Assembly: GCF_003334815.1 (NCBI RefSeq)
Contig: NZ_QOWO01000061.1
Strand: one strand, 5' to 3'
Length of the DNA stretch: 10,623 nt
DNA from: Escherichia coli
GTDB lineage: Bacteria; Pseudomonadota; Gammaproteobacteria; Enterobacterales; Enterobacteriaceae
Shown here: positions 3,001-6,000 of the stretch, in pieces
Position numbering within the stretch: the first letter of the stretch is position 1
Layout of the letters: the number at the start of each line of letters is the position of its first letter
Program-made: the position numbers

Positions 3001-6000
3001 TATTTACTGATCCGTTCTCAAGTATTGATACAGGGTTTCGCGACTGATTCCGAATTCACGAGCAAGCTTGGTCTTTTGCTCGCCAGCCTCGACACGTTGG
3101 CGCAGTTCGGCAATACGCTCAGACGACAGGGATTTCTTCCTGCCACGGTAAGCCCCGCGTTGCTTGGCGAGCGCAATACCCTCGCGCTGACGCTCGCGGA
3201 TCAGGGCGCGCTCGAACTCGGCGAACGCGCCCATCACCGAGAGCATCAGGTTCGCCATCGGAGAGTCTTCGCCAGTAAAACTGAGGTGTTCCTTGACGAA
3301 TTCGATATGCACGCCGCGTTGTGTCAGCGTTTGCACGATCCGGCGCAAATCATCGAGATTGCGCGCCAGGCGATCCATGCTATGCACCACCACGGTGTCG
3401 CCGGTGCGGGCGAAGCTTATCAGCGCTTCCAGTTGCGGACGCTTGACATCCTTGCCGGATGCCTTGTCGCTAAAAGCGCGATCAACCTTGACGCCTTCCA
3501 GTTGCCGTTCCGGGTTCTGGTCGAAGGTGCTGACCCTGATATACCCAATGCGCTGTCCAGTCATGGAATTCCCTGCAAAATGTCAGGGAAGACTCTATGA
3601 CCTTCAACGAGATATGTCAATAAATTCAAAATTCAATCCTATCCTGACGCAATTTACACATGGCATCTGACATCAGGTTAGGGTATGCCTCAACCTGACG
3701 GCGGCGAATCACAAGCGTCCGGTTTGACGCTGGTTTCGGTCGCAGTGCTGGCCCGCGCCTGGAAGCGCTGATAGCACTCCAGCCCGCAGAAATGCTCCAC
3801 GTACTCGGCCCCTTCCGGCGTGAAGGCGGCATCGAGCGGGATTTCCTTGCAGCACACGCAGCAACTGGTGCTCGGTTCATTGGCGTTCATGGTGGTGTTC
3901 CTCCATTGGTTGACGAAGCCGACGAAGGCCGCCGCCGGCATCGGCCTGGCGAACAGGAAACCCTGCACCGTGTCGCAACCCGCCTGCCGCAACCACGCAA
4001 GGCAGTCGGGTGTTTCCACACCCTCGGCTACCACCTCCATTGTCGTTTTCAGAAGACGGCTGCACTGAACGTCAGAAGCCGACTGCACTATAGCAGCGGA
4101 GGGGTTGGATCCATCAGGCAACGACGGGCTGCTGCCGGCCATCAGCGGACGCAGGGAGGACTTTCCGCAACCGGCCGTTCGATGCGGCACCGATGGCCTT
4201 CGCGCAGGGGTAGTGAATCCGCCAGGATTGACTTGCGCTGCCCTACCTCTCACTAGTGAGGGGCGGCAGCGCATCAAGCGGTGAGCGCACTCCGGCACCG
4301 CCAACTTTCAGCACATGCGTGTAAATCATCGTCGTAGAGACGTCGGAATGGCCGAGCAGATCCTGCACGGTTCGAATGTCGTAACCGCTGCGGAGCAAGG
4401 CCGTCGCGAACGAGTGGCGGAGGGTGTGCGGTGTGGCGGGCTTCGTGATGCCTGCTTGTTCTACGGCACGTTTGAAGGCGCGCTGAAAGGTCTGGTCATA
4501 CATGTGATGGCGACGCACGACACCGCTCCGTGGATCGGTCGAATGCGTGTGCTGCGCAAAAACCCAGAACCACGGCCAGGAATGCCCGGCGCGCGGATAC
4601 TTCCGCTCAAGGGCGTCGGGAAGCGCAACGCCGCTGCGGCCCTCGGCCTGGTCCTTCAGCCACCATGCCCGTGCACGCGACAGCTGCTCGCGCAGGCTGG
4701 GTGCCAAGCTCTCGGGTAACATCAAGGCCCGATCCTTGGAGCCCTTGCCCTCCCGCACGATGATCGTGCCGTGATCGAAATCCAGATCCTTGACCCGCAG
4801 TTGCAAACCCTCACTGATCCGCATGCCCGTTCCATACAGAAGCTGGGCGAACAAACGATGCTCGCCTTCCAGAAAACCGAGGATGCGAACCACTTCATCC
4901 GGGGTCAGCACCACCGGCAAGCGCCGCGACGGCCGAGGTCTTCCGATCTCCTGAAGCCAGGGCAGATCCGTGCACAGCACCTTGCCGTAGAAGAACAGCA
5001 AGGCCGCCAATGCCTGACGATGCGTGGAGACCGAAACCTTGCGCTCGTTCGCCAGCCAGGACAGAAATGCCTCGACTTCGCTGCTGCCCAAGGTTGCCGG
5101 GTGACGCACACCGTGGAAACGGATGAAGGCACGAACCCAGTGGACATAAGCCTGTTCGGTTCGTAAGCTGTAATGCAAGTAGCGTATGCGCTCACGCAAC
5201 TGGTCCAGAACCTTGACCGAACGCAGCGGTGGTAACGGCGCAGTGGCGGTTTTCATGGCTTGTTATGACTGTTTTTTTGGGGTACAGTCTATGCCTCGGG
5301 CATCCAAGCAGCAAGCGCGTTACGCCGTGGGTCGATGTTTGATGTTATGGAGCAGCAACGATGTTACGCAGCAGGGCAGTCGCCCTAAAACAAAGTTAAA
5401 CATCATGAGGGAAGCGGTGATCGCCGAAGTATCGACTCAACTATCAGAGGTAGTTGGCGTCATCGAGCGCCATCTCGAACCGACGTTGCTGGCCGTACAT
5501 TTGTACGGCTCCGCAGTGGATGGCGGCCTGAAGCCACACAGTGATATTGATTTGCTGGTTACGGTGACCGTAAGGCTTGATGAAACAACGCGGCGAGCTT
5601 TGATCAACGACCTTTTGGAAACTTCGGCTTCCCCTGGAGAGAGCGAGATTCTCCGCGCTGTAGAAGTCACCATTGTTGTGCACGACGACATCATTCCGTG
5701 GCGTTATCCAGCTAAGCGCGAACTGCAATTTGGAGAATGGCAGCGCAATGACATTCTTGCAGGTATCTTCGAGCCAGCCACGATCGACATTGATCTGGCT
5801 ATCTTGCTGACAAAAGCAAGAGAACATAGCGTTGCCTTGGTAGGTCCAGCGGCGGAGGAACTCTTTGATCCGGTTCCTGAACAGGATCTATTTGAGGCGC
5901 TAAATGAAACCTTAACGCTATGGAACTCGCCGCCCGACTGGGCTGGCGATGAGCGAAATGTAGTGCTTACGTTGTCCCGCATTTGGTACAGCGCAGTAAC

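Follow-up and report, generated by a model that had tools for sequence, protein, structure and literature searches.

Based on the results presented below, we suggest that positions 5260-5288 of the Escherichia coli DNA analysed here (10,623 nucleotides in all, hereafter the window) are the active P2 promoter of In2/Tn21, and that the same GGG insertion breaks the LexA operator and uncouples intI1 from the SOS response; we assign this reading a probability of about 93%. The effect of the GGG on P2 and on the LexA box is already known. Disruption of the LexA site was proposed by Jové et al. in 2010 (PMC2791841) and tested on this exact sequence by Cambray et al. in 2011 (PMC3108266), and later papers and reviews, including the review PMC8876359, repeat it. 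For Tn21/In2 and other PcW-P2 integrons, this is textbook knowledge backed by experiment. The anatomy of the site, the GGG as an insertion when compared with other integrons, the lack of a further LexA box in the window and the identity to a published probe are direct observations of the present analysis. The literature shows the activity of P2 and, on the identical probe and on the pMUR050 copy, the loss of LexA binding and LexA regulation with the GGG.

Aligned over all of its 10,623 bases with the Tn21 region of plasmid R100, the window showed 99.99% identity and one indel of 1 bp. When the 251 bases surrounding the site were searched, plasmid records carrying an intI1 annotation matched in their thousands, led by R100 (Shigella flexneri) at 100%. 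Exact copies of the Tn21 terminal repeat (38 bp, at 2-39) and of the integron repeat IRi (25 bp, at 4041-4065) are present. The genes follow in the order Tn3-family transposase (tnpA), resolvase (tnpR), intI1, aadA1, qacEdelta1, sul1, a GNAT gene (orf5) and istB/istA of IS1326, so that the set of features that defines Tn21/In2 (terminal repeat, tnpA-tnpR, IRi and intI1-aadA1-qacEdelta1-sul1-orf5-IS1326) is present. In the region of interest, In2 (Tn21, R100/NR1), with its P2/Pc2 and 'broken' LexA box, is the same as the window. The single difference from the R100 record lies at about 6223-6224, just downstream of aadA1 in what should be its attC recombination site, where the window reads GACGCGCTTC and R100 reads GACGCCGCTTC; either the variant is genuine, or the Tn21 records differ here through sequencing.

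Two other parts of the window are worth describing. A mechanically called ORF of 204 aa (3690-4304, minus strand) crosses the integron boundary at IRi, in what is presumably the 'tnpM/urf2' region of Tn21. Its residues ~77-138 resemble the C-terminal end of an EAL-domain cyclic-di-GMP phosphodiesterase (E ~1e-9, far below the family cut-offs), which fits a gene remnant cut by the insertion of In2. At the other end, istB and istA of IS1326 (IS21 family) occupy 8343-10620 on the minus strand; istA, listed with a TTG start and a length of 501 aa, reaches to within 3 bases of the edge of the window, and the R100 annotation makes it slightly longer.

On the plus strand, 5260-5288 reads directly as TTGTTA TGACTGTTTTTTTGGGG TACAGT. 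The two hexamers stand 17 bp apart through the GGG insertion, in place of the 14 bp of the inactive form, and a search for TTGTTA-N17-TACAGT gave one match in the window against none in 200 shuffles. The three inserted G are among the four at 5279-5282, and it is ambiguous which three they are. Within the same segment, the CTGT and ACAG half-sites of the LexA operator are both intact, but the 11 nt between them (TTTTTTGGGGT) replace the 8 nt of the functional form, in which the SOS box is a 16-bp palindrome. The pattern CTGT-N11-ACAG is by itself unremarkable, with 0.17 matches expected per window and at least one match in 31 of the 200 shuffles; its meaning comes from homology and not from rarity. 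Direct reading and the pattern searches agree with an earlier note on this DNA, which had placed TTGTTA-N17-TACAGT at 5260-5288 and CTGT-N11-ACAG at 5269-5287. The features of the region are collected in Table 1.

Table 1. Features around the P2 promoter and the LexA operator, with coordinates in the window
Feature	Coordinates	Strand	Basis or remark
intI1, intact, 337 aa, variant R32/H39	4243..5256	-	NCBIfam PRK15417 integron integrase, 799.5 bits (cut-off 435)
Pc, weak variant PcW, TGGACA-N17-TAAGCT	5141..5169	+	no TGN extended -10 (preceding bases TCG)
Published 99-nt 'Pint1+' gel-shift probe, unbound by LexA	5234..5332	+	exact match in the window
P2 (Pc2) -35 hexamer TTGTTA	5260..5265	+	read directly; same in every aligned class 1 integron
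Disrupted LexA operator	5269..5287	.	CTGT 5269-5272, 11 nt, ACAG 5284-5287
GGGG run holding the 3 inserted G	5279..5282	+	within the P2 spacer, between the LexA half-sites; 3-base alignment gap
P2 -10 hexamer TACAGT	5283..5288	+	direct reading, pattern search
PintI1 -10 hexamer TAGACT	5286..5291	-	overlaps P2 -10 (5286-5288) and ACAG half-site (5286-5287)
PintI1 -35 hexamer TTGCTG	5309..5314	-	17-nt spacer to -10
attI1 core GTTAAAC, junction with aadA1 cassette	5395..5401	+	aligned integrons diverge just past GTTA
aadA1 cassette gene, transcribed from P2 and Pc	5405..6196	+	NCBIfam AadA1, 597.6 bits (cut-off 587); R100 annotation

The insertion was assessed by alignment with four GGG-less class 1 integrons (carrying dfrA1, blaVIM-66, aadA1 and dfrA12 cassettes) and with both pMUR050 integron copies. 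Across the intI1 start, P2, PintI1 and attI1, the sole difference from the four GGG-less integrons and the GGG-less pMUR050 copy was a clean gap of three bases in the run of G, and the other differences in the alignment were known Pc polymorphisms. The earlier note had proposed such an alignment, and its outcome supports the claim made there that the GGG extends the spacer of P2 from 14 to 17 bp and widens the LexA box from N8 to N11. The GGG-less integrons read CTGTTTTTTTGTACAG, a 16-bp CTGT-N8-ACAG palindrome of the form CTGT-TTTTTTGT-ACAG, and have a P2 spacer of 14 nt. In these ordinary class 1 integrons, the half-sites of the LexA operator CTGTTTTTTTGTACAG, its flanks and its position over the PintI1 -10 hexamer are shared with the window, whereas P2 is inactive owing to its 14-bp spacer. 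Guérin et al. reportedly demonstrated in 2009 that this ordinary class 1 PintI1 LexA operator is under SOS regulation.

To see how widespread the insertion is, a 251-base query (5150-5400) was used; a 3-base gap limits identity to 98.8%, and the band of at least 99% identity serves as a proxy for the presence of the GGG. In complete E. coli genomes, 357 of the 3008 matching records fell within this band, that is, about 12% by this proxy, which agrees with the published 9%. Among the best 5000 records from the plasmid collection, 688 did so.

The window has the In2 configuration, PcW-P2. At the Pc positions, the aligned integrons show TAAACT and/or TTGACA or TGG. According to Jové et al. 2010 (PMC2791841), P2 is 7-fold stronger than PcW and occurs in 9% of 321 integrons, nearly always together with PcW. 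First-cassette expression was also higher in the pMUR050 GGG copy (Cambray et al. 2011, PMC3108266). A consensus sigma-70 promoter scan of 5100-5420 detected none of P2, Pc and PintI1; the scan was too strict for these promoters, which are weak consensus matches of 8/12 or fewer (8/12 for P2), and their promoter status therefore derives from published experiments only. An attI1 core of the form GTTRRRY adjoins the first cassette, and Pc lies inside intI1. Rfam family RF02912 (AAC_AAD_leader, 'putative aminoglycoside riboswitch / attI site') was matched at 5349-5427 on the plus strand with 73.9 bits (gathering score 56), a span that takes in the last part of attI1 and the first part of aadA1, and transcripts from both P2 and Pc would include it. 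A 336-aa ORF (5186-6196, plus strand) runs in frame from the 5' end of intI1 via P2 and attI1 into aadA1; the annotated start of aadA1 is 5405, and the stretch of this ORF before it is unlikely to be translated in this form.

For the operator itself, a symmetric position weight matrix (PWM) was derived from 20 known SOS boxes of E. coli; its scores are approximate. These training sites scored 13.2-27.2 bits. The E. coli uvrB SOS box (AACTGTTTTTTTATCCAGTA), which belongs to a chromosomal gene, has canonical spacing and was used as a comparison for the PWM only; its T-rich spacer is much like that of the GGG-less integron box and is compatible with LexA binding. In the real sequence, the best score over 5200-5420 was -3.2 bits, outside the range of known operators, and it rose to 16.0 bits once the GGG was deleted in silico (site GACTGTTTTTTTGTACAGTC). 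The ordinary class 1 operator, with its N8 spacing, likewise has 16.0 bits as against -3.2 bits for the N11 form of the window. The earlier note had named an intact canonical operator elsewhere as one finding that would overturn its claim. No exact CTGT-N8-ACAG was found anywhere in the window, and the best PWM score over the whole window was 6.3 bits, far under the known sites (at least 13.2 bits), so that an intact LexA operator at another position was rejected.

The binding of LexA to this sequence has been tested directly. In the gel-shift assay of Cambray et al. 2011 (PMC3108266), E. coli LexA bound the GGG-less probe and failed to bind its GGG counterpart, and RT-PCR in a lexA mutant revealed derepression (6.55-fold) of the GGG-less copy only. 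The sequence of the GGG probe, given in a supplementary table of that paper, is identical to window 5234-5332. The claim that intI1 is no longer LexA-regulated is thereby upheld, and the gel shift and the lexA-mutant comparison proposed in the earlier note had already been published, with the predicted outcome. Additional file 4 of the same paper (PMC3108266) lists 45 'broken' sites, including those of R100 (AP000342) and Tn21 (AF071413), and the 25-mer listed for these two (AGACTGTACCCCAAAAAAACAGTCA) is the reverse complement of window 5266-5290. It should be noted that the gel shift was run on naked DNA, the 99-bp probe, with one LexA concentration (200 nM), and that the expression test was done with the pMUR050 copies, in which intI1 is inactivated and Pc is PcH1, as opposed to PcW in the window (PMC3108266). 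The 'PintI1+' copy of pMUR050, the model for both experiments, has the same P2, GGG, PintI1 and attI1 as the window; over the aligned 5100-5398, one base differs, giving a Pc -10 hexamer TAAACT (PcH1) where the window has TAAGCT (PcW). Its first cassette is aadA2, and its intI1 is inactivated whereas that of the window is intact. We infer that the same result would hold quantitatively for Tn21 in its native context, that is, on passing from pMUR050 to PcW and an intact intI1.

We suggest the following mechanism for the double effect of the insertion. Most class 1 integrons have a 14-bp spacer at this place. With the three extra G, TTGTTA and TACAGT stand at the distance of 17 bp needed by the sigma-70 RNA polymerase, and P2, reported to be about 7-fold stronger than the upstream PcW, then drives most of the aadA1 transcription in the PcW-P2 configuration. 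The same three bases also sit between the half-sites of LexA, in an operator that overlaps the PintI1 -10 hexamer on the opposite strand. A LexA dimer is expected to need two half-sites that face the same side of the helix at a set distance. With 3 bp added, one half-site would be displaced by ~10 Å and ~100 degrees, roughly a third of a turn of the helix, which would put contact with both out of reach of the dimer. The loss of LexA binding would thus be explained by a shift of the half-sites in distance and in helix face, a structural reason that we infer. Consequently, LexA no longer binds, and the transcription of intI1 from PintI1 is uncoupled from the SOS response.

Several other explanations have to be weighed against this one. 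The extra G might have arisen through faulty sequencing or assembly of a homopolymer, the integron really being GGG-less; homopolymers are error-prone, and a 1-bp indel relative to the R100 record does occur elsewhere in the window. However, the identical GGGG is found in R100 and pMUR050, the 357 of 3008 E. coli records that reach at least 99% identity could not have done so with three of the 251 query bases falling in a gap, 45 GenBank entries with the GGG are in the Cambray 2011 list, and a 3-base error in a run of a single G is untypical of homopolymer errors. Given that many independent records carry the GGGG, this reading was rejected, and its chance is negligible. LexA might also still repress the intI1 of Tn21 despite the N11 spacing, through flexibility of the dimer, FIS-stabilised binding at a half-site or another operator. 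Both half-sites are, after all, intact. A 2022 review credits Cagle et al. 2011 with the finding that, on a class 1 integron with a 'functional P2', LexA occupancy was something that FIS 'seemed to stabilize'. We suspect that their construct was Tn21 In2, and if so, some LexA effect might persist in vivo. On the other side, the probe identical to 5234-5332 gave no shift and the GGG copy no derepression in the lexA mutant (Cambray 2011), and the window holds no exact N8 site, its best PWM score being 6.3 bits as against at least 13.2 bits for known sites. We regard persisting LexA repression as very improbable, and keep to the reading that the GGG breaks the operator.

A different question is what happens to intI1 expression once LexA control is lost. 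P2 (5260-5288, plus strand) and PintI1 (5314-5286, minus strand) fire towards each other, and 3 bp (5286-5288) belong to both -10 hexamers. The convergence agrees with the earlier note, where P2 was said to run against the intI1 promoter and no particular consequence of this was claimed. The PintI1 -10 hexamer is identified from the legend to Figure 8 of the review PMC8876359 and, reportedly, from Guérin 2011. Competition for RNA polymerase between the overlapping, convergent P2 and PintI1 is plausible. On this basis, it can be argued that LexA control is lost and intI1 expression is still not raised, P2 competing with PintI1 or occluding it; the insertion would then exchange an inducible repressor for a constant promoter competition. 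The shared 5286-5288, with almost completely overlapping footprints of RNA polymerase, and the ~7-fold greater strength of P2 over PcW speak for such an outcome. A secondary source on Guérin 2011 mentions an integration efficiency 'significantly reduced' with P2 at the same Pc and states that more cassette transcription inhibits integrase expression. The review PMC8876359, however, attributes to Guérin et al. 2011 interference from the strong PcS only and none from P2. We consider this outcome unlikely. The secondary sources are in conflict on whether P2 lowers intI1 expression; the main conclusion, that the GGG uncouples intI1 from SOS control, is unaffected by this conflict, which bears on the net level of intI1 expression in Tn21. 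An effect of the insertion through the RNA was rejected, since the extra CCC in the intI1 leader left the predicted minimum-free-energy structure unchanged, with -8.2 kcal/mol with and without it (the transcription start being approximate).

The integrase gene in the window is intact, and its protein has the same accession as in the R100 annotation, as is proper to the integrase gene of a class 1 5'-conserved segment. The R32/H39 form is the most active IntI1 variant according to the literature. Cambray et al. 2011 (PMC3108266) noted that the loss of LexA control tends to accompany inactivated integrases. Tn21, which combines an intact intI1 (R32/H39) with a broken LexA box, is an exception to this trend. 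For native Tn21, it is conceivable, if rather doubtful, that the state is not simply 'constitutive intI1', and that either the braking of PintI1 has passed from LexA to the overlapping, convergent P2 or some LexA effect remains with the aid of FIS. If true, Tn21 would hold the most active IntI1 variant (R32/H39) in check through a mechanism other than the SOS box.

One more copy of Tn21 with the GGG adds nothing new, and a real regulatory consequence can here be reconstructed from the sequence alone. On a clinically important platform, the GGG insertion ties higher expression of resistance cassettes to an integrase freed from SOS control.
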